Part shown: positions 1,893 to 8,998 of the stretch, one piece after another
How positions within the stretch are numbered: position 1 is the first letter of the stretch
Layout of the letters: every line of letters starts with the position of its first letter
From: a virus
Virus genome (UHGV): UHGV-0132372
Length of the DNA: 36,038 bases
Reading direction: 5' to 3' (one strand)
The notes under the pieces: generated by a model
Seen by the model: only the letters and a program-made list of their open reading frames with translations
Told to the model about the DNA's origin: nothing
Databases searched by the model: none
Position numbers and translations under genes: made by a program

Positions 1893-2632
1893 GACTGCAC
1901 TCCTTTGCGAATTTGGTAGGCATGGACGCGCATTATGTCGATTGCCTTCGATGTGACAGGATGCTGATGGTTCATCATCGCAATGACTGTGTTAATCGCT
2001 GAATCCACACCCTGCGCCCGCACTTCAGCCAGAAAAGCATCGGTGGCTGGGGTTTTGTTATCTGACTCCAGCCACTGGTTGTAGTAATAATCGAACATGC
2101 CAGTAGGATAACCACATCCGCTGTGCACGTGGTCTTTCATAGCAGAACCACACATGCAGTAGTCATTGTCAGTATTACTAATGATGTCGATAAGTTGCTG
2201 TGTCCGTTGCTTCAACATCGCATTCTCCGCCGCCAGCGCCGAAAACTTCTCGTGTGCCAACTTAACAGCTGCATCAGCCTGCTTAATTGACTCAGTCGCT
2301 TTCTGGTGGTCTTCGGCCAGCCCTGCTAAATCAGCCTCCAGTTCGGCTAGGCGTTCATTTAATGCATCTCGTTCATCCAGTAGTGCCAGCGCAACATTTG
2401 GATTAAAAGCAGCAATAAATTCAGCGTTTGCATAAGCCTGAACATCTGTTTCAACCAGGCAGTTAACATGACATTCCGCAATCACACCACCGGGTTCTCC
2501 TTTCCATTTTTGACAAACAAAAACTCCTGTTATATTCCCATGCTGATTGCCCGATGTATGCCCTACGATGTAGCTCCCTTTCGTTGCCTGCTCTGCCGCC
2601 TCACGCAGTGCCTGATAGTCAATCTTGCTCAC
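1889..2632 (-). CDS. Ead/Ea22-like coiled-coil protein with Cys/His-rich C-terminus (GTG start)
   Basis: AGGAGG RBS 6 nt before the GTG at 2632; N-terminus [14 protein letters not shown]; central coiled-coil; C-terminal CMCGS...HVHSGCG. Confidence 0.6.
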
Positions 2633-2796
2633 TGGTTGCCTCCTTTGCGCCACATCGCATTCAGATATTTGTTGTCATTAACAGAACCGAAACTCTTTCT
2701 CTTAAGCAATTCCTCTCTCGATGGCATTGGCTTTACGCGTTGGCGAATAATCATTTCTGCCGGAAGAATGCCGGGATTGTATGCAAGTCCTCTCAT
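2629..2796 (-). CDS. small hypothetical protein (55 aa)
   Basis: GAGGAA RBS before the ATG at 2796; stop overlaps the GTG start of the downstream gene (GTGA). Confidence 0.35.
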
Positions 2797-2806
2797 GGTA
2801 AATTCC

Positions 2807-3103
2807 TCAGTCATTACTGATAGCGCCATAGCGTGAGCGGTAATTACGCAGGCGCGGGTCGATATATTCAGGGAAGTGGGTATATGTGGCTTTGCGGAAT
2901 GGTCGGATTGATGTCTGGTAAATTCGCTCGCGTTCTTCTTTCTCTGCAAGCCATATACAATGGCGAAATTCCTTTTCCTCTTTCGTTTCCTGCGGTAGCG
3001 ACATTATCAGGTCGTAGTTTTTTCTGAATTTATCCAGCACCTCCGATACGGAATTGCCGGAACAGCGGCGCGGGTCATCCGCACCATACAGAGGCGCTGG
3101 CAT
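2807..3103 (-). CDS. hypothetical protein (98 aa)
   Basis: ORF track entry in the co-directional operon. Confidence 0.45.
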
Positions 3104-3126
3104 AATGGGAGCCTTATTTTCAGTAA

Positions 3127-3714
3127 TCAGAAAGGAGGGTAATCGTTCTGGCTGTAACCATAATCATCTGCATGATTCTGGCTTACGTTTTTAGAGCGAT
3201 TGTCTTTATCTTTGAGATTGGCAACCATGTTGGCGATAGTTTCTGGTTGCTTGCCTTCTGCCTTTTCTTTAAGGGTTTGACCTGTTTGTGCAATAAACGG
3301 GATGCGTATTTCCATCTGGTAGCTGTCTGCGCCAGTCTTTTTGTTTGTGGTTAATACTTTCTGAAGCACTAACCCGATTTTCTTTCCATGAAATTCAGGT
3401 GCAACAAATTTACTGGCGGAAACCATATGCTGCGTTAATTGTCCAATCCCGGCACACCCCATCATGGCGTGAACGACATTTGCGCCAAATTTGTTTTCCG
3501 TTCCGTCATTTTTCTGAACACAGACGCTAAGATATTGGATTTTACGTCCGTCGTCGGATTCGCCAGAAAACTCAATAAATTTGGCTCCTTTTTCTGATTG
3601 CTTTAGTTCTGCTTCAGTAATGGTAATGATATGAGCGCCAGTTTCGTTAATAAAACCACCTTGCCCTGCGGTCAGTGCTGCTTCTTCGTTATAAGTAAAA
3701 ATCACGTTGCTCAT
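3127..3714 (-). CDS. SSB-like single-strand binding protein (DUF669-like), partner of the Sak4-type ATPase
   Basis: ATGA overlap with the upstream ATPase gene; acidic C-terminal tail ...DDYGYSQNDYPPF resembles the SSB C-terminal tip; location is where the Red/Erf module sits in lambdoid phages. Confidence 0.55.
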   Translation of the reverse strand: MSNVIFTYNEEAALTAGQGGFINETGAHIITITEAELKQSEKGAKFIEFSGESDDGRKIQYLSVCVQKNDGTENKFGANVVHAMMGCAGIGQLTQHMVSASKFVAPEFHGKKIGLVLQKVLTTNKKTGADSYQMEIRIPFIAQTGQTLKEKAEGKQPETIANMVANLKDKDNRSKNVSQNHADDYGYSQNDYPPF

Positions 3715-4391
3715 GCGGCGTTTTCCTTAATTTGATGAACATTATTGATGCCGTAGTAATCACAAACAGTGGCATCGACGAAAGAGAGATCGTTATCAAT
3801 CTCATTGGAATCAAACATTCCCATTGGGGATTTAACAGTGTCTGCACCGTTGTTTTTCGTGGTGAAAAAGAACTGGTCATCGCGGGTAAGAGTGCGAAGA
3901 ACTATAGTAAACATGCCTTCGACAGTGATTTTCTCGTCCAGCATTTTGCCGATAGTTTTCATTTTCACGCGCCCCATAGGGGTTTCTTCGGTGTGCGCAA
4001 GAAAATAGACTCTCAGGTCATCAGGTGCATCCTGTGCAGCCTTAATCACCTCCCATGCGTGGCGGCCTATCTCAGTAAATTTATCAAACGATTTTTCTTC
4101 TGAGCGGCGCATAAACTCATTGCTCATCACATACTGGAAGTCATCAACAATAACGATTCTTTTCCCGTATTCGTGAGCACGCTTAATTACGGCAACTATT
4201 ACGTCCCATTTGTCAGTGGTAACTACGGTTCCTTTTTTTGCTCTGGCATCCCATGCCAGCCATTCTTTTGATTTAAATGGTAGCGGCTTGCCTATTGGTT
4301 TTATAAGTATTGCTTCCTCTGGATTGATATTTCTCATGCTGGTTGATTTTCCGGTGCCAGACTCACCGAGTATTAATGTCGCAGTTCCCAT
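3711..4391 (-). CDS. Sak4-like RecA-family recombination ATPase (AAA_24-like)
   Basis: Walker A GESGTGKST near the N-terminus; ~226 aa; GAGGTGA RBS; sits in the recombination slot of the pL operon. Confidence 0.7.
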   Translation of the reverse strand: MGTATLILGESGTGKSTSMRNINPEEAILIKPIGKPLPFKSKEWLAWDARAKKGTVVTTDKWDVIVAVIKRAHEYGKRIVIVDDFQYVMSNEFMRRSEEKSFDKFTEIGRHAWEVIKAAQDAPDDLRVYFLAHTEETPMGRVKMKTIGKMLDEKITVEGMFTIVLRTLTRDDQFFFTTKNNGADTVKSPMGMFDSNEIDNDLSFVDATVCDYYGINNVHQIKENAA

Positions 4392-4399
4392 AATTCACC

Positions 4400-4588
4400 T
4401 CAGAATGGTAATTCGGATGGGGAGGAAAGAAATTCGCGCTCATTCATGCGCTCTCTTTGTGCTTGCCATAAACAAAGTTGTTTCTTTGATTTATCTCCCG
4501 CTTTACGCCAGTAACGAGCCTCAGCAATGTGATATTCTCTTTTTAATCGACTTAACTCTGGAGTTTTCGCCAGCTCTACCGGAATCAT
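4400..4588 (-). CDS. hypothetical protein (62 aa)
   Basis: ATGA overlap with the upstream small gene. Confidence 0.4.
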   Translation of the reverse strand: MIPVELAKTPELSRLKREYHIAEARYWRKAGDKSKKQLCLWQAQRERMNEREFLSSPSELPF

Positions 4589-4698
4589 TTAGACCTCCAT
4601 TTTCTGTAGGCTTCGACGGCCTCACCAAACATCTTTTCATCGCCAATAAAAGTGGCGATAGTGAATTTAGTCTGAATAGCCATAAGTGTTTTATCCAT
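4585..4698 (-). CDS. small protein, possibly Kil-like (by synteny after cIII)
   Basis: ATG overlaps the cIII stop (AATGGATAA); 37 aa, MDKTLMAIQTKFTIATFIGDEKMF...; the longer ORF-track version (4585..4788) would overlap cIII in another frame. Confidence 0.4.
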   Translation of the reverse strand: MDKTLMAIQTKFTIATFIGDEKMFGEAVEAYRKWRSK

Positions 4699-4837
4699 TT
4701 TTTGGAACTCCTGGCTGATTAAGTACGTCGATGAGTCGTTTCCATCCGTCACGTAATTTACGGGTGATTCGTTCAAGTAAAGATTCATTTAATTGGAAGG
4801 CACCCATGCGAGCGCCTCCCGCGATTGCGTAAATCAT
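4691..4837 (-). CDS. cIII: CIII-like regulator (FtsH inhibitor)
   Basis: Not in the ORF track (48 aa). AAGGAA RBS; translation MIYAIAGGARMGAFQLNESLLERITRKLRDGWKRLIDVLNQPGVPKNG matches the lambda CIII core ESLLERITRKLRDGWKRLID.LNQPGVPKNG. Confidence 0.8.
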   Translation of the reverse strand: MIYAIAGGARMGAFQLNESLLERITRKLRDGWKRLIDVLNQPGVPKNG

Positions 4838-4861: not shown

Positions 4862-5830
4862 TTAGTAGGTTATTTTTGTTGCGAATACTTCGCCTTTTAC
4901 GATGGCTGTTATGATATTTTTAGCAACATCTTCTGATGCGCCAACCTTGATAAGGTCAGCAAGTATTTTGTTATTTACTTCTTTCCGGTGAGCTTTATCC
5001 TTTGCTCTACACTCTTCTTCTTCCTTGATTCTTTTTTCTTCTGCTATTCTGGCTTGCTCTTTTGCTTCAGCCTCGCGCCGGATTCGTTCAGCCTCCTCCT
5101 GTGCTTTTCGGCGTTCTGCTTCAATTGCCGCCTGCTTTTCTCTTTCAGCTCGTTCTGCTGCCTCTTTTGCTTCGCGCTGTGCTCGTTGCTCGGCTTCAAT
5201 GCGTTCACGCTCTGCACGTTCCGCTGCGGCCTTAGCTTCTGCTTCTCGCCTTGCTGCTGCTTCAATTTCGGCTTTTGCCTTTGCTTCGGCTTCTGCTCTG
5301 GCTTTCTCTTCAGCTTCTCTTTTTAAGCGTTCTTCATGCTCTCGCTTTTCCTGCTCCGCTTTGAGTCTTGCCTCTTCTCTTTGGCGGTCAAATTCGCGAT
5401 CCATCAAAATAGCTATTTCATGGTCAGACTCAATTTGCTTTGCGAGAGCTTCAGCTGCTGCCTTAGCTTCTTCTTCGGCTTTAATCCGTGCCTGTTCCTC
5501 CTCATAATCAGTAAGAGGCTGGCGTGCCTTGGATTTCAGCTCATCAAGGCGATCACGCACTGTCTTGCGGTTGGCATCAATTAGCTTTGGAATTTCCTTC
5601 AGTTCAGCAACAAGGTCTTTTCCAAGACCATCGAGATATGTTTTCGTCTGCGCAACTTTATACGCCAGAGAAGCGATCTCCTTTCTGCCCTTTGCCGTTG
5701 TGATATCAGGCACAAAGGACATAACTTCACGTTCAACCTTTTGAAGGATTTCTTCAATCTGGTCGGCAGACTGAAATACAGTCATTGCATTTGCTTTTTC
5801 AATAACAACTAAATCTGTTACTTCACTCAT
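4862..5830 (-). CDS. coiled-coil protein with a long Glu/Ala/Arg/Lys-rich low-complexity core (322 aa)
   Basis: GGAGGA RBS before the ATG at 5830 (the ORF-track start at 5884 is probably an upstream extension); ~180 aa of EAKAKAEAE/RREAE repeats between a globular N-terminal domain and a short C-terminal domain. Confidence 0.6.
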   Translation of the reverse strand: MSEVTDLVVIEKANAMTVFQSADQIEEILQKVEREVMSFVPDITTAKGRKEIASLAYKVAQTKTYLDGLGKDLVAELKEIPKLIDANRKTVRDRLDELKSKARQPLTDYEEEQARIKAEEEAKAAAEALAKQIESDHEIAILMDREFDRQREEARLKAEQEKREHEERLKREAEEKARAEAEAKAKAEIEAAARREAEAKAAAERAERERIEAEQRAQREAKEAAERAEREKQAAIEAERRKAQEEAERIRREAEAKEQARIAEEKRIKEEEECRAKDKAHRKEVNNKILADLIKVGASEDVAKNIITAIVKGEVFATKITY

Positions 5831-5964
5831 ATATCCTCCATCAAAAAAATCGCCCTCACATCGGAGGGCAAAGAAGATTTCCAATAATCAGAACAAGTCG
5901 GCTCCTGTTTAGTTACGAGCGACATTGCTCCGTGTATTCACTCGTTGGAATGAATACACAGTGC

Positions 5965-6492: not shown

Positions 6493-6942
6493 TTACTTAA
6501 CCAATGATGCTGCATATTCGATAAGGTAAAGCTTTGGGGCCAGCCAAATTTTTAACCAAGTCATATTGGTTACTACACCAATAATAAAAATCCCCCACAG
6601 AGTCAAAACTACAACCAATGGCATGATAAGAAGATTAATATCACCTTTGCTATCCCAAACCATTGTCGGCCTGTATTTGGGATTTCCTTTCTCCCATGAA
6701 TATCCTTCATCACCGATTTTACCTGTCTCAACTCTTTGGCACTGCTTCTTCATAAACCAGAAAACCAGTGGGATTGTTAGAATGGCCATTAATGTTTTAA
6801 TCAGACTGTCAACCATATTCCATAGCAGCAACTGATGAACAACATCAGGAATCTGTGCCTGGCTAAATGAAACAGCCGCGTCTATTCCATTACTGGCTTT
6901 TTGCAGTAGTTCTACGAGAATCTTGTTTGCTTGTTCTTCCAT
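6493..6942 (-). CDS. membrane protein with two predicted TM helices (possible superinfection-exclusion type, by position)
   Basis: Hydrophobic segments LIKTLMAILTIPLVFWFM and LLIMPLVVVLTLWGIFIIGVV; GAGGTGA RBS; AT-rich; lies in the N-to-cIII accessory slot. Confidence 0.55.
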   Translation of the reverse strand: MEEQANKILVELLQKASNGIDAAVSFSQAQIPDVVHQLLLWNMVDSLIKTLMAILTIPLVFWFMKKQCQRVETGKIGDEGYSWEKGNPKYRPTMVWDSKGDINLLIMPLVVVLTLWGIFIIGVVTNMTWLKIWLAPKLYLIEYAASLVK

Positions 6943-7022: not shown

Positions 7023-7211
7023 TTAACTATCATCAATACATGGCACTTTATTCCAGTCGATATCGTTTTTATTGTCGTCCCACATGTCTTTGTTTTTGTA
7101 TTTCTCGCTACATCCTAGGCAAATGTTGTATGGCCTACCGATAAGGTTTAACGAAATACGTTGCATTTCATTTGATTCAAACATGTATCCACAGAACTGA
7201 CATTTATGCAT
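7023..7211 (-). CDS. small zinc-ribbon-like protein (62 aa, CxxC...CxxC)
   Basis: MHKCQFCGYMFES...NICLGCSEKY; AT-rich; flanked by the repeat elements. Confidence 0.45.
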   Translation of the reverse strand: MHKCQFCGYMFESNEMQRISLNLIGRPYNICLGCSEKYKNKDMWDDNKNDIDWNKVPCIDDS

Positions 7212-7293
7212 ATCTCACCCCTCATACAGTAGCTTACTGCCTAATTTCATTTTCTGGCGACCAACACAAGTCACACCCATTTCACTGCGTGGC

Positions 7294-7351
7294 TTGCGGT
7301 AGCTCTACGAGAATCTTGTTTGCTTGTTCTTCCATATATCACCTCAAATAA
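7294..7351 (-). pseudogene. duplicated RBS plus first 12 codons of the 6493..6942 membrane-protein gene (truncated remnant, MEEQANKILVEL then out of frame)
   Basis: 58 bp matches 6901..6958 with 3 mismatches and is fused by a TTGC microhomology to a 28-bp copy (7270..7297) of N-gene sequence 7591..7618. Confidence 0.6.
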
Positions 7352-7535
7352 GTGGTTTGCTGCGAAAGTAAATACGCTTAAGTTACCTGTTATTTATCCC
7401 ACCAAGTTCCGTATCTATCTATCCAGTTACACCAATCATCGACACTCCATTTTGTTGTGTCGCATTTTGGCAACTGGCATGAATATCTACCTTCTTTGTA
7501 AAGTCGGCGTTTGACTTTCTTGAGCATGGCTCACC

Positions 7536-7868
7536 TCAATCGTAATAAGCTGGAATTGATTTTCCGCGTTGCTTCTGGCGGCCTGAGCATGTCACACCCA
7601 TTTCACTGCGTGGCTTGCTGTACCATGTGCGATGATTCTTGCGCTCAACAGCTTCAGCGCGTTTTTCCATCTCTTCCCGATACTCAGCCAGCACCGTTAA
7701 ATCAATCGGGTTCAGAGCGCTTTCTACGCGTGATTTAGGCTTTCGAGTCAGCGAGAGAATTTTGCGGGTGTCTGGCTTGGCGCTTACCCCAACTAACAGG
7801 GGGTTTGCTGCTTTCCATTGAGCCTGTTTCTCTGCGCGACGTTCGCGGCGGCGTGTTTGTGCATCCAT
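7536..7868 (-). CDS. N: antitermination protein N
   Basis: Translation MDAQTRRRERRAEKQAQWKAANPLLVGVSAKP...RVESALNPIDLTVLAEY matches lambda N (Arg-rich boxB-binding N-terminus); AGGAGA RBS; nutL lies upstream. Confidence 0.9.
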   Translation of the reverse strand: MDAQTRRRERRAEKQAQWKAANPLLVGVSAKPDTRKILSLTRKPKSRVESALNPIDLTVLAEYREEMEKRAEAVERKNHRTWYSKPRSEMGVTCSGRQKQRGKSIPAYYD

Positions 7869-8136
7869 CTGGATTCTCCTGTCAGTTAGCTTTGGTGGTG
7901 TGGTGGCTGGTAGTCTAGCTCCAGCTTGTTGAGTCTCATTCGGAGGGGTATAACCGGCACCCCAGTGATTTTTCCATGCGACAACGTGCGCGTTATGGCG
8001 GCCTTATCGCCCGCGGCTCCCCATCTCGTCCACGCTATTGCTAGCGTTGGGAGCGCTTCACCGCTCAACAGTAGGTAAGCACTTGCCAGTGACTAGCTGG
8101 CTTCACCACACCCCAAAGCCTTCTGCTTTGAATGCT

Positions 8137-8166
8137 GCCCTTCTTCAGGGCTTAATTTTTAAGAGC
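8137..8166 (-). promoter_or_regulatory. nutL (boxB GCCCTGAAGAAGGGC, boxA GCTCTTAAA on the minus strand)
   Basis: Plus strand reads GCCCTTCTTCAGGGCTTAATTTTTAAGAGC, the reverse complement of lambda nutL; lies between pL and N. Confidence 0.8.
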
Positions 8167-8206
8167 ATCACCTTCATGGTGGTCAGTGCGTCCTGCTGAT
8201 GGCTAG

Positions 8207-8268
8207 ATAATCACAAATTGTGTTCGTGCTGTCAACACGAAATGTGATTGTTTTTATCACAACACGTG
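8207..8268 (-). promoter_or_regulatory. pL promoter with three oL operator repeats
   Basis: Minus strand TTGACA (8230..8235), 17-nt spacer, GATTAT (8207..8212); operator-like repeats ATCACA-N4-GTG at 8210..8222, 8236..8248 (inverted) and 8256..8268. Confidence 0.6.
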
Positions 8269-8308
8269 TTTTCATTGATTTTTAAGGTAATTTAATTTTC
8301 TTTGGGCA

Positions 8309-8331
8309 ACAAAAAACCCGCCGAAGCGGGT
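8309..8331 (-). terminator. intrinsic terminator downstream of the repressor gene
   Basis: ACCCGCTTCGGCGGGT hairpin followed by a U-run on the minus strand, just after the cI stop and before pL. Confidence 0.5.
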
Positions 8332-8356
8332 TTGATGTTTTTAAGTGGCGGGTATA

Positions 8357-8998
8357 TCAGGAGAATTTCATCATCATCTGCACTGCTACGCCGATTATCT
8401 TGCAGTTGCCGTCGATTGGGATCAACGGATAGGCAGGGTTAAGCCCTTTCAGGTATTTGTTACCGCCATCAATGATTAGCTTCTTGAACGTGGCTTCATT
8501 AGCATCTGTCAGCTTCGCAACTACCAGGCTTCCATTAACGGCTTCCTTTCCAGTGTCGAACAGAACCAGCATACCCTCAGGAACGCTAAGGCCGGTAGGA
8601 GCTGTCATTGAGTCGCCCTGAACCCTGAGCCAGAAGGCGTCACCGACAACGTGACAATCTGATTCATACCACTCATCCACTGCCTGAGGGTTGTACGGCT
8701 CTACGGCCTCACTCCATGCACCTGCGCTAACCCAGCTAATCAACGGAAACTTTTCCCCTGGCTTGTATTGTCCCTGATAGTTGTCGCCAAAAAGCAGTTC
8801 TGCCGGAGCGACGCCCAAAGCTTTAGCTATTACCTCTGCGTCATCAACACTAACGCTTCTGGTTCCTGATTCATAGTTGCCGATCCGAGATTGTGAAGCC
8901 CAGCCGCAAAGCTCCGCCAGCGCCTTCTGTGAAAGCCCTTTATCTTCCCGTAATCGCTTGATACGCGCGGCGATAGTTTCTGTTCTGTTCATGCGCAT
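8357..8998 (-). CDS. cI: CI/C2-type prophage repressor (HTH plus LexA/S24-like autocleavage domain)
   Basis: N-terminal HTH (LSQKALAELCGW...NYESG); C-terminal domain PLISWVSAGAW...VQGDSMTAP...VVAKL...ATFKKL matches the P22 C2 / lambda CI S24 domain; divergent from cro across the operator region. Confidence 0.85.
   Translation of the reverse strand: MRMNRTETIAARIKRLREDKGLSQKALAELCGWASQSRIGNYESGTRSVSVDDAEVIAKALGVAPAELLFGDNYQGQYKPGEKFPLISWVSAGAWSEAVEPYNPQAVDEWYESDCHVVGDAFWLRVQGDSMTAPTGLSVPEGMLVLFDTGKEAVNGSLVVAKLTDANEATFKKLIIDGGNKYLKGLNPAYPLIPIDGNCKIIGVAVQMMMKFS

Follow-up and report, generated by a model that had tools for sequence, protein, structure and literature searches.

What does a protein rich in Glu, Ala, Arg and Lys do in the early-left (pL) operon of a phage? 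The question is raised by the virus genome UHGV-0132372, of which the whole stretch analysed, 36,038 nucleotides and hereafter called the window, carries such a gene on its minus strand, directly upstream of cIII. A preliminary description, made from the letters of the sequence, had proposed for it a repeat tract prone to slippage and length variation, and a role as a molecular ruler or a host-interaction scaffold. We show that this is a real, conserved phage gene, and that its homologs in phages of five host clades are linked to the genes of single-strand annealing proteins (SSAPs) of phage recombination modules. The position given in the preliminary description was exact, and a true coding sequence (CDS) is found there:

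4862..5830, minus strand: Glu/Ala/Arg/Lys-rich CDS, 322 amino acids (aa) plus stop, 969 bp; ATG at 5830, stop codon at 4862-4864

Linkage to genes of annealing proteins

The genomic context was examined at 273 loci from five clades, in which the neighbouring genes were classed with seed proteins and iterated hidden Markov model (HMM) searches. In the five host clades the gene adjoins an SSAP gene, often lying 8-12 bp upstream of it, and the two are always co-oriented. The loci used for context, and for the lengths of viral loci given in the next section, are the 80 best matches of each clade scan, ranked by similarity, a sampling that favours equal length and the same context. The counts for four of the clades are given below, the median gap being the distance from the stop codon to the next recombination gene.

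E. coli type: SSAP or exonuclease gene at most 4 kb downstream on the same strand in 76/76 loci, upstream in 0/68; median gap 520 bp
Pseudomonas: SSAP or exonuclease gene at most 4 kb downstream on the same strand in 75/75 loci, upstream in 0/67; median gap 8 bp
Acinetobacter: SSAP or exonuclease gene at most 4 kb downstream on the same strand in 43/43 loci, upstream in 0/59; median gap 11 bp
rhizobial: SSAP or exonuclease gene at most 4 kb downstream on the same strand in 12/12 loci, upstream in 0/9; median gap 12 bp

The Acinetobacter figure of 43/43 includes two loci recovered via PHROG annotation; in this clade the split between Erf and Bet is unreliable, a Bet-like protein of phi5013-M1 having been present in the 'Erf' seed, which leaves the recombination-gene counts unaffected. 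At Vibrio-type loci the order is sometimes inverted, with the genes still adjacent, and at a few distant loci a helicase gene or a gene without assignment occupies the place of the SSAP gene. The initial scan of viral contigs had returned near-identical E. coli loci only. The same arrangement is found in annotated phages, in the following gene orders:

D3: homolog, Erf, exonuclease
JBD44: gp65 (homolog), Erf-like gp64, gp63
Sinorhizobium phiLM21: homolog, Erf, YqaJ exonuclease, NinB
Acinetobacter phi5013-M1: homolog, Bet-like, exo
Klebsiella Mulock: homolog, GamL, Bet, Exo
Serratia Eta: homolog, hypothetical gene, exoVIII, hypothetical gene, Bet
Vibrio Seahorse: Sak4-like ATPase, SSB-like, homolog
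Ab31: ORF39 (homolog), Bet, Exo, SSB (single-strand DNA-binding protein)

GF-2 is a further annotated example of a homolog beside recombination genes. In Ab31, ORF39 (extract 3501-4565) ends 7 bp before ORF38-37-36, the 'BAS' operon. When three members of the family were picked regardless of their context, each of them adjoined an SSAP gene (phrog_3290, RecT-like and Sak4-like, respectively).

The neighbouring SSAPs belong to at least five families; those verified against PHROG are Erf-like (155, 1097), Bet-like (252), RecT-like (561) and Sak4-like (2872) proteins together with members of PHROGs 2449 and 3290. Within the E. coli clade, cIII (and kil) invariably follows the gene, and the recombinase module located further downstream varies: Sak4, SSB and Abc2 in the window, Erf with or without SSB and Abc2 in Sf6, HK633 and CUS-3, and RecT with a Mu-Gam-like gene in Louie. 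Two alleles of this clade that are 100% identical lie one by Erf and the other by RecT, and two that are 99.7% identical have an Erf and a Sak4 neighbour, respectively; in the Pseudomonas clade, alleles sharing 99.2% identity stand one beside Bet and the other beside Erf. Near-identical alleles are thus found beside unrelated SSAPs, and the gene therefore does not co-evolve with a particular annealing protein. Its linkage to SSAP genes is tight, directional and independent of the SSAP family. This link was not found described in the literature searched, and is new in that respect; nor did the same searches (Sf6 gp33, mEp phages, TolA with cIII/kil, coiled-coil with SSAP) return a functional study of the gene.

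Three-part architecture and length of the spacer

The encoded protein can be divided into the following parts.

5486..5830, minus strand: N-module, aa 1-115, delimited by conservation and AlphaFold2
5384..5428, minus strand: conserved motif DHEIAILMDREFDRQ, aa 135-149, delimited by family conservation
4997..5380, minus strand: E/A/R/K spacer, aa 151-278, predicted fully helical and encoded by purine-rich DNA
4865..4996, minus strand: C-module, aa 279-322 (44 aa), delimited by the family consensus; small helices at a predicted local distance difference test (pLDDT) score of 83-86

This layout, an N-module, a spacer and a short C-module, is kept in distant homologs, as the preliminary description had sketched it for the single protein, but the N part, which had been called a globular domain, is not predicted to be globular. 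With an alignment of 51 sequences, AlphaFold2 returned an all-helical chain (mean pLDDT 79) with helices at residues 15-20 and 22-37, the conserved loop, a continuous helix at 46-190, a second one at 202-295 and a small C-terminal helix; the break at 191-201 is of low confidence. Residues 1-150 modelled alone gave the same picture, and as a monomer no globular fold is predicted. In the models the N-terminal part is a short helical hairpin followed by one long helix starting at residue 46.

In the N-module, a disordered tip is followed by the helical hairpin (aa 15-38), the conserved loop PD.sT.kGRk and an amphipathic helix from aa 46. Residues R49, K63, G70, R88, L98, P105 and E110 are invariant, and the family motif reads fvPD.sT.kGRk.iaS.A.kVa.sKtyLD..GK.Lva..K..pK.iDa.RK..Rd.LD.L...vRkPLt.WE.eQ, with DHE.aLL.n.FDR later in the chain. 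In the family profile, helix 46-104 presents a hydrophobic period of 3.5-3.6 residues (best 3.55-3.60) that was matched by 0/2000 shuffles; the pattern, absent from the spacer, fits an amphipathic helix or a coiled coil alike. Because of this strong hydrophobic periodicity, helix 46-104 would have to pack against something, be it another helix of the module, a second copy or a partner. At the other end of the protein the C-module follows the consensus D..HR..iN....L...G..e..AK..v.AIa.G.I....I.Y-COOH, in which H281 and the terminal Y322 are nearly invariant.

Motif DHEIAILMDREFDRQ (DHE..LM..EFDR) resembles one unit of a module that longer family members carry duplicated or multiplied. The 519-aa protein P0212 carries four copies of a module of roughly 70 aa with an R-D-W-Q-E-F motif, replacing the plain charged helix, and the 429-aa protein P0193 has two related W..F modules in the same place. 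In Providencia and Enterobacter members the DHE..LM..EFDR motif is duplicated.

The central part is dominated by four residues. E, A, R and K make up 78% of residues 111-290 and 84% of residues 151-290 (E 29%, A 25%, R 17%, K 12%); in the latter segment E, R and K together reach 58%, to which A adds 25%, and ILVMFYW account for 11/140 residues. The stretch had been read as EAKA/EAER repeats, which holds for its composition but not for a tandem arrangement. The purine skew reported for 5040..5400 was found as described (73% purine on the coding strand, compared with 48% for the whole window). Pairs of opposite charge at i/i+3 and i/i+4 are enriched in the spacer, with z = 5-6 against composition-preserving shuffles, and Ala forms a weak stripe with a period of ~11/3 residues (p about 0.04). 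There is no hydrophobic seam: the period-3.5 power of the family profile was reached by 717/2000 shuffles, and the single-sequence test was also non-significant. By this charge pattern and the absent seam, the spacer is predicted to be of the ER/K single-alpha-helix (SAH) type. The spacer contains no conserved Gly or Pro at any position, which leaves the predicted turn in its middle with no basis in the sequence. The predicted model is compatible with two arrangements, and the spacer may form either a single extended helix or an antiparallel hairpin; if fully extended, a spacer helix of ~130-170 residues would span ~19-25 nm.

The length of the tract was examined in several samples. The E. coli genomes with the gene, 530 in number, were sampled at even spacing; of the 55 full-length copies in this sample, 49 measure 969 bp, four 970 bp and two 955 bp. 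The 970-bp form (CUS-3, UTI89) has one additional T at nt 336, which makes it a frameshift pseudogene (CUS-3 extract 2501-3470), and the 955-bp form, found in UPEC129, is missing 14 nt (nt 469-482) and bears the flag 'frameshifted; internal stop' (extract 301-1255). All complete copies on E. coli-type viral contigs (73/73) have the same length from the homologous N-terminus to the stop, and 76/76 Pseudomonas loci stay within ±2 aa (351-355 aa) down to 77% identity. The 74 Acinetobacter loci fall into few length classes of 335-355 aa. Across 118 distant members the median spacer length is 169 aa, identical to that of the query (interquartile range 158-187 aa; 5th and 95th percentiles 136 and 216 aa). 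Over 71 distinct alleles, the ratio of non-synonymous to synonymous polymorphism (pN/pS) is 0.19 overall, 0.11 for aa 1-150, 0.28 for the spacer and 0.14 for the C-module. Purifying selection acts on all three parts. From the length data and pN/pS, the tract is coding, constrained and length-stable; a non-coding artefact is ruled out by purifying selection and the size of the family.

These data bear directly on the proposal of a slippage-prone tract whose alleles would provide rulers or scaffolds of different length. Such a tract would agree with the purine-rich, low-complexity DNA, with the Acinetobacter length classes and the spread of the distant spacers, and with rare in-frame variants. 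The only one among the annotated phages is HK633, which lacks 66 bp (22 aa) between two AERAERE copies, and in E. coli variant protein clusters of 296, 300, 309, 321 and 333 aa exist. However, each of these clusters has one member listed, compared with 471 for the 322-aa cluster, and all six E. coli copies departing from 969 bp are out-of-frame pseudogenes. True tandem repeats are absent as well: Tandem Repeats Finder detected weak 6-, 15- and 18-nt periodicities only (scores 43-48, 63-87% matches), and the direct repeats of the tract are 15-37-mers that are 67-89% identical. Together with the constancy of the E. coli-type and Pseudomonas copies and the purifying selection acting on the spacer, this leaves the slippage reading largely refuted, and we give it hardly any credence. 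The HK633 deletion (extract 2501-3403; window CDS nt 604-669) looks repeat-mediated, and the 300-aa allele recurs in several E. coli clusters.

The tract was thus found to be essentially constant in length, while the protein matched no known structural family. Of the ruler or scaffold, a spacer of fixed length is possible in view of the conserved length, but a ruler of the tail tape-measure type is excluded, the gene lying in the early-left operon between N/tL2 and cIII and not in a tail module, and being tied to recombination genes. The idea survives only in modified form.

Family identity and operon neighbourhood

The gene of the window belongs, as an exact member, to a family already catalogued though uncharacterised, that of Sf6 gene 33 (NP_958209), D3 Orf53 and Ab31 ORF39, which corresponds to PHROG 1376, labelled as of unknown function. 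N-module, spacer and C-module are all common to the window, D3, JBD44 and Ab31 proteins. The nucleotide identity to Sf6 gene 33 is 98.3%, and 35 phage records carry the gene at 97-99.9% nucleotide identity, among them Sf6, mEp213, mEp043, mEp234, HK544, HK633, CUS-3, IME10, BASEL temperate phages and Stx1a phages. It is present in 530/5426 complete E. coli genomes (about 10%). An exhaustive HMMER search with the N-terminal 150 aa, against clusters at 50% identity, returned 5066 cluster representatives with E <= 1e-3, of which 3662 reached E <= 1e-10, the full-length members being mostly 290-380 aa long; a shorter query (the 117-aa N-terminus) gave mostly fragments of less than 200 aa. PHROGs 17211 and 21365 match one half each of the frameshifted (split) copies, from which they appear to be derived.

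Annotators have named close relatives hypothetical protein, 'TolA', 'cell envelope biogenesis protein' or 'coiled-coil domain-containing protein', and distant ones 'fibrinogen binding', 'tail-fiber' or 'antitoxin'; colicin import membrane protein, ribosome recycling factor and major outer membrane lipoprotein are further names met in the family. These incompatible names are apparently artefacts of composition and low complexity. With the TolA model (TIGR02794), whose cutoff is 59.45 bits, the protein reaches 9.3 bits (E = 0.58), there is no N-terminal transmembrane anchor, and neither the Pfam TolA nor a Tol-Pal domain is matched. The sole TolA-like feature is the long Ala/Glu/Lys-rich helical stretch, seen in composition and helix prediction and comparable to domain II, and since this helical composition is all that is shared, 'TolA' is a mislabel. 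A membrane or envelope protein was likewise rejected: hydropathy revealed no transmembrane or signal segment, the N-terminus is not hydrophobic, and the Kyte-Doolittle maximum in a 19-aa window is 1.03, at residue 293.

Searches for other relatives gave the following results. Pfam yielded 0 matches for the protein or any of 41 family members, even at E <= 10, and NCBIfam no family match for the protein. The sole PADLOC hit was a coil-type match to LmuB (E = 0.023); a sequence profile search of the PDB returned nothing significant, its matches being limited to the ATP synthase b stalk (E = 0.17-0.29), and Foldseek with the full model found no match in the PDB at E <= 0.001 and matched only uncharacterised family members in a viral library. 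Homology to an annealing protein, a nuclease, an SSB or an anti-RecBCD protein was not detected via Pfam, NCBIfam, PHROG function or the PDB. Unusually long or odd-ended members contained no informative domain fusion; one fusion to SusD and three more unusual C-termini resemble chimeras or truncated proteins.

The surroundings of the gene in the window are listed below.

5834..5839, minus strand: Shine-Dalgarno sequence GGAGGA, 3 nt 5' of the ATG at 5830, read from the sequence
about 5840..5871, minus strand: intrinsic terminator (tL2-type), an 8-bp GC-rich stem plus T7 (stem and T run at 5871-5843), found by terminator scan
4691..4837, minus strand: cIII, the next gene downstream (PF02061, 1.9e-24)
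4585..4788, minus strand: kil, mechanical open reading frame (ORF) of 67 aa (PF06301, 1.3e-19)
2807..4588, minus strand: HK620-type recombination module, downstream in the same operon
4400-4588, minus strand: 62-aa ORF in the hkaM/arf position, between kil and sak4 (phrog_1723, labelled 'recombinase')
3711-4391, minus strand: Sak4 (phrog_2872, 3e-108)
3127-3714, minus strand: Sak4-associated SSB (phrog_743)
2807-3103, minus strand: Abc2, 97% identical to Sf6 Abc2

The Pfam matches of cIII and Kil confirm the place directly upstream of cIII in the pL operon that had been assigned to the gene. The terminator ends ~4 nt before the Shine-Dalgarno sequence, and Sf6 annotates its tL2A at the equivalent place; since the two match, expression of the gene should need N antitermination. 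The mechanical ORF list contains a longer version of the gene with a TTG start at 5884, which was rejected because the extension would run through this terminator.

Between N and the gene there are two unannotated ORFs on the minus strand, 6493..6942 and 7023..7211. One of them (149 aa), with several hydrophobic stretches, could encode a membrane or exclusion protein; the second (62 aa) is Cys-rich (CxxC...CxxC) and could be a zinc finger of the Ral/Lar type. The mechanical kil ORF overlaps cIII by about 100 nt, and because the Pfam Kil match is limited to aa 32-62, the true kil start is probably internal, as in Sf6 (kil 153 bp). HK620 hkaM and P22 arf, which occupy the position of the 62-aa ORF at 4400-4588, are accessory recombination genes.

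Function and comparison with known systems

The explanation towards which we lean, with some reserve, is that the protein acts as an accessory, non-catalytic, rod-like adaptor of phage recombination (Rec) modules. Its mechanism and the identity of its partner, which we infer, would be as follows. The protein would be a cytoplasmic, almost entirely alpha-helical rod, made of the N-module, a charged spacer helix and a small C-module ending in Tyr, in which the amphipathic helices of the N-module would pack mutually, or against a second copy or a partner. The gene would be co-transcribed with the SSAP gene, usually abutting it, whatever the SSAP family, and in enteric lambdoid phages cIII and kil would have been inserted between the two. 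The two conserved ends would contact an element common to these modules, such as DNA ends, single-stranded DNA intermediates or a conserved host factor, and not the annealing protein itself, and the rigid helix would set the distance between them. In favour of this explanation are the purifying selection and large size of the family, the linkage to SSAP genes of whatever family, the predicted all-helical structure, the conserved length and the equivalent slot of Firmicutes phages described below.

Several observations weigh against such an adaptor. Gene order gives a correlation only, and in mosaic phages unrelated early genes also accumulate at module boundaries; the clade samples of 80 loci, ranked by similarity, favour relatives of the same context. 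E. coli-type copies of the gene are linked to cIII/kil, and 456-1071 bp separate them from the first recombination gene. Many phages, lambda and P22 among them, do without such a gene, and in resident prophages of the UTI89/CUS-3 and UPEC129 lineages it decays by frameshift. Fold and profile searches link the family to no DNA-transaction protein, and the AlphaFold2 model fixes neither the choice between single helix and antiparallel hairpin nor the oligomeric state. Finally, the Bet-Exo-SSB operon of Ab31 recombineers without ORF39 (PMC6438905), and the HK620 hkaM-sak4-ssb-abc2 module, as defined, works without this gene (PMC5928155). Since Rec modules of relatives work without it, the gene is not required for the core annealing reaction, and any role would be auxiliary or infection-specific.

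The main rival is an end-protection protein, of the anti-nuclease or anti-defence kind, which would sit in the 'gam slot' and shield DNA ends or intermediates without joining recombination. The homolog lies directly upstream of the SSAP and exonuclease genes, as lambda gam does, in Ab31, D3, JBD44, phiLM21 and Acinetobacter phages, and Mu-Gam-like genes sometimes fill the same slot in Firmicutes phages (PMC8093625). The 'BAS' system, built from Ab31 orf38-36 with orf39 never considered, was described as having no RecBCD inhibitor, and its recombineering is improved by exogenous Gam (PMC6438905). The pL region of the window also holds other counter-defence genes, e.g. Abc2. However, the gene accompanies GamL in Mulock and Abc2 in 73/76 E. 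coli-type loci, the remaining three having a Mu-Gam-like gene, and for this reason it is no substitute for the known anti-RecBCD functions. A DNA mimic of the Gam/Ocr type was rejected, the charge of the protein being near neutral (69 K+R vs 78 D+E, net about -9 over 322 aa), unlike that of DNA-mimic inhibitors; Pfam gives no match to a Gam or Ku family, and PADLOC nothing beyond the coiled-coil-type LmuB match. We regard this explanation as unlikely, and slightly more so a third one, in which the gene would be a hitch-hiking early gene concerned with host takeover, cell division or the envelope, whose position reflects the conserved order of the early-left operon. The inheritance of the gene as a block with cIII and kil in enteric lambdoids, where the recombinase is swapped among Sak4, Erf and RecT, would fit this, as would the Mulock homolog, which follows a cell-division inhibitor gene, and the recombineering modules that work without the gene. 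But it is hard to square with the 8-12 bp adjacency to the SSAP gene, found repeatedly where cIII/kil are absent, in phages of the Pseudomonas, Acinetobacter and rhizobial clades and in some of Vibrio; the genes are still neighbours in those Vibrio phages where the order is inverted. An envelope function is further disfavoured by the hydropathy and TolA results given above.

A stronger form of the adaptor explanation starts from the 246 lambdoid Rec modules catalogued in 2025, which, in the accessible part of that catalogue, are described by annealing protein, nuclease, SSB and anti-RecBCD classes, and in which part the gene is not met (PMC12315714). The family could then represent an unrecognised fifth functional class of Rec modules, a rigid adaptor of fixed length compatible with any annealing protein, which would tether intermediates to a conserved host machine (replisome, SSB) or hold and shield DNA ends. 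We consider this tentative and rather doubtful. If it were true, adding Ab31 ORF39 to 'BAS' would measurably change the efficiency of recombination or recombineering.

What the analysis adds is that the gene is consistently associated with recombination modules and that the label 'TolA' is mistaken. The family is large and unexplained (more than 5,000 clusters at 50% identity), has no Pfam model and is widely mislabelled 'TolA', and the gene heads phage recombination modules even beside operons already used for recombineering, such as Ab31 BAS. Should it modulate recombination, it would bear on how temperate phages make mosaic genomes and could improve the portability of recombineering to non-model bacteria. 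Should it not, it would be a natural example of a long, length-conserved ER/K-type spacer between conserved end-modules. As a minimum outcome, the annotation 'TolA / cell envelope biogenesis' should be corrected.

Among known proteins, Sf6 gene 33, D3 Orf53 and Ab31 ORF39 present no family-level difference from the window protein. Outside enterics, the gene is contiguous and co-oriented with the other Rec genes (gap 8-12 bp); in enterics cIII/kil intervene. Firmicutes phages have Mu-Gam-like, DUF2483, DUF1351 or Sipho_Gp157 genes in the slot preceding erf, sak4 or recT, for which an analogous function was inferred by the authors (PMC8093625). DUF1351 (PF07083) resembles the family in being largely helical by sequence pattern and in standing beside erf, sak4, recT or a DUF669-type ssb (PMC8093625), and its local motif GK.L.AE.K...K.ID..R aligns with the family. 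However, 0/41 family members match PF07083 at E <= 10, whereas a genuine DUF1351 protein gave 2.2e-18 in the same test, and hhalign of the family with DUF1351 returned a probability of 1.2% (P = 0.044, 24 columns), the DUF1351 profile, built from a gene of Enterococcus phage LG62 and its relatives, being shallow (number of effective sequences, Neff, 1.6). Homology to DUF1351 is not demonstrable, and the verified DUF1351 protein has no comparable E/A/R/K spacer or matching C-module. In Enterococcus phage vB_Efm_LG62 (extract 7058-8839, minus strand), the DUF1351 gene (PF07083, 2.2e-18) is followed downstream by a gene of 230 aa, the syntenic counterpart of the XWef1 DUF669 SSB; this 230-aa product has no Pfam match at E <= 0.01.

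The spacer itself resembles ER/K SAH spacers, TolA domain II and the ATP synthase b stalk in composition, i/i+4 salt bridges and the absent seam, and hendecad stalks show a pattern like its weak 11/3-residue Ala periodicity. The analogy is of physical type only: in comparison with TolA and ATP synthase b, the protein has no membrane anchor, TolA C-domain or ATPase context, and the conserved N- and C-modules of the family have no counterpart in SAH, TolA or ATP synthase b proteins. P22 Arf, Abc1 and HK620 HkaM are of unrelated sequence and much smaller, and in the window a separate 62-aa ORF takes the HkaM/Arf position; like the gene described here, however, they are encoded with recombination genes, and they aid recombination, or are presumed to, without being essential (PMC12315714, PMC5928155).

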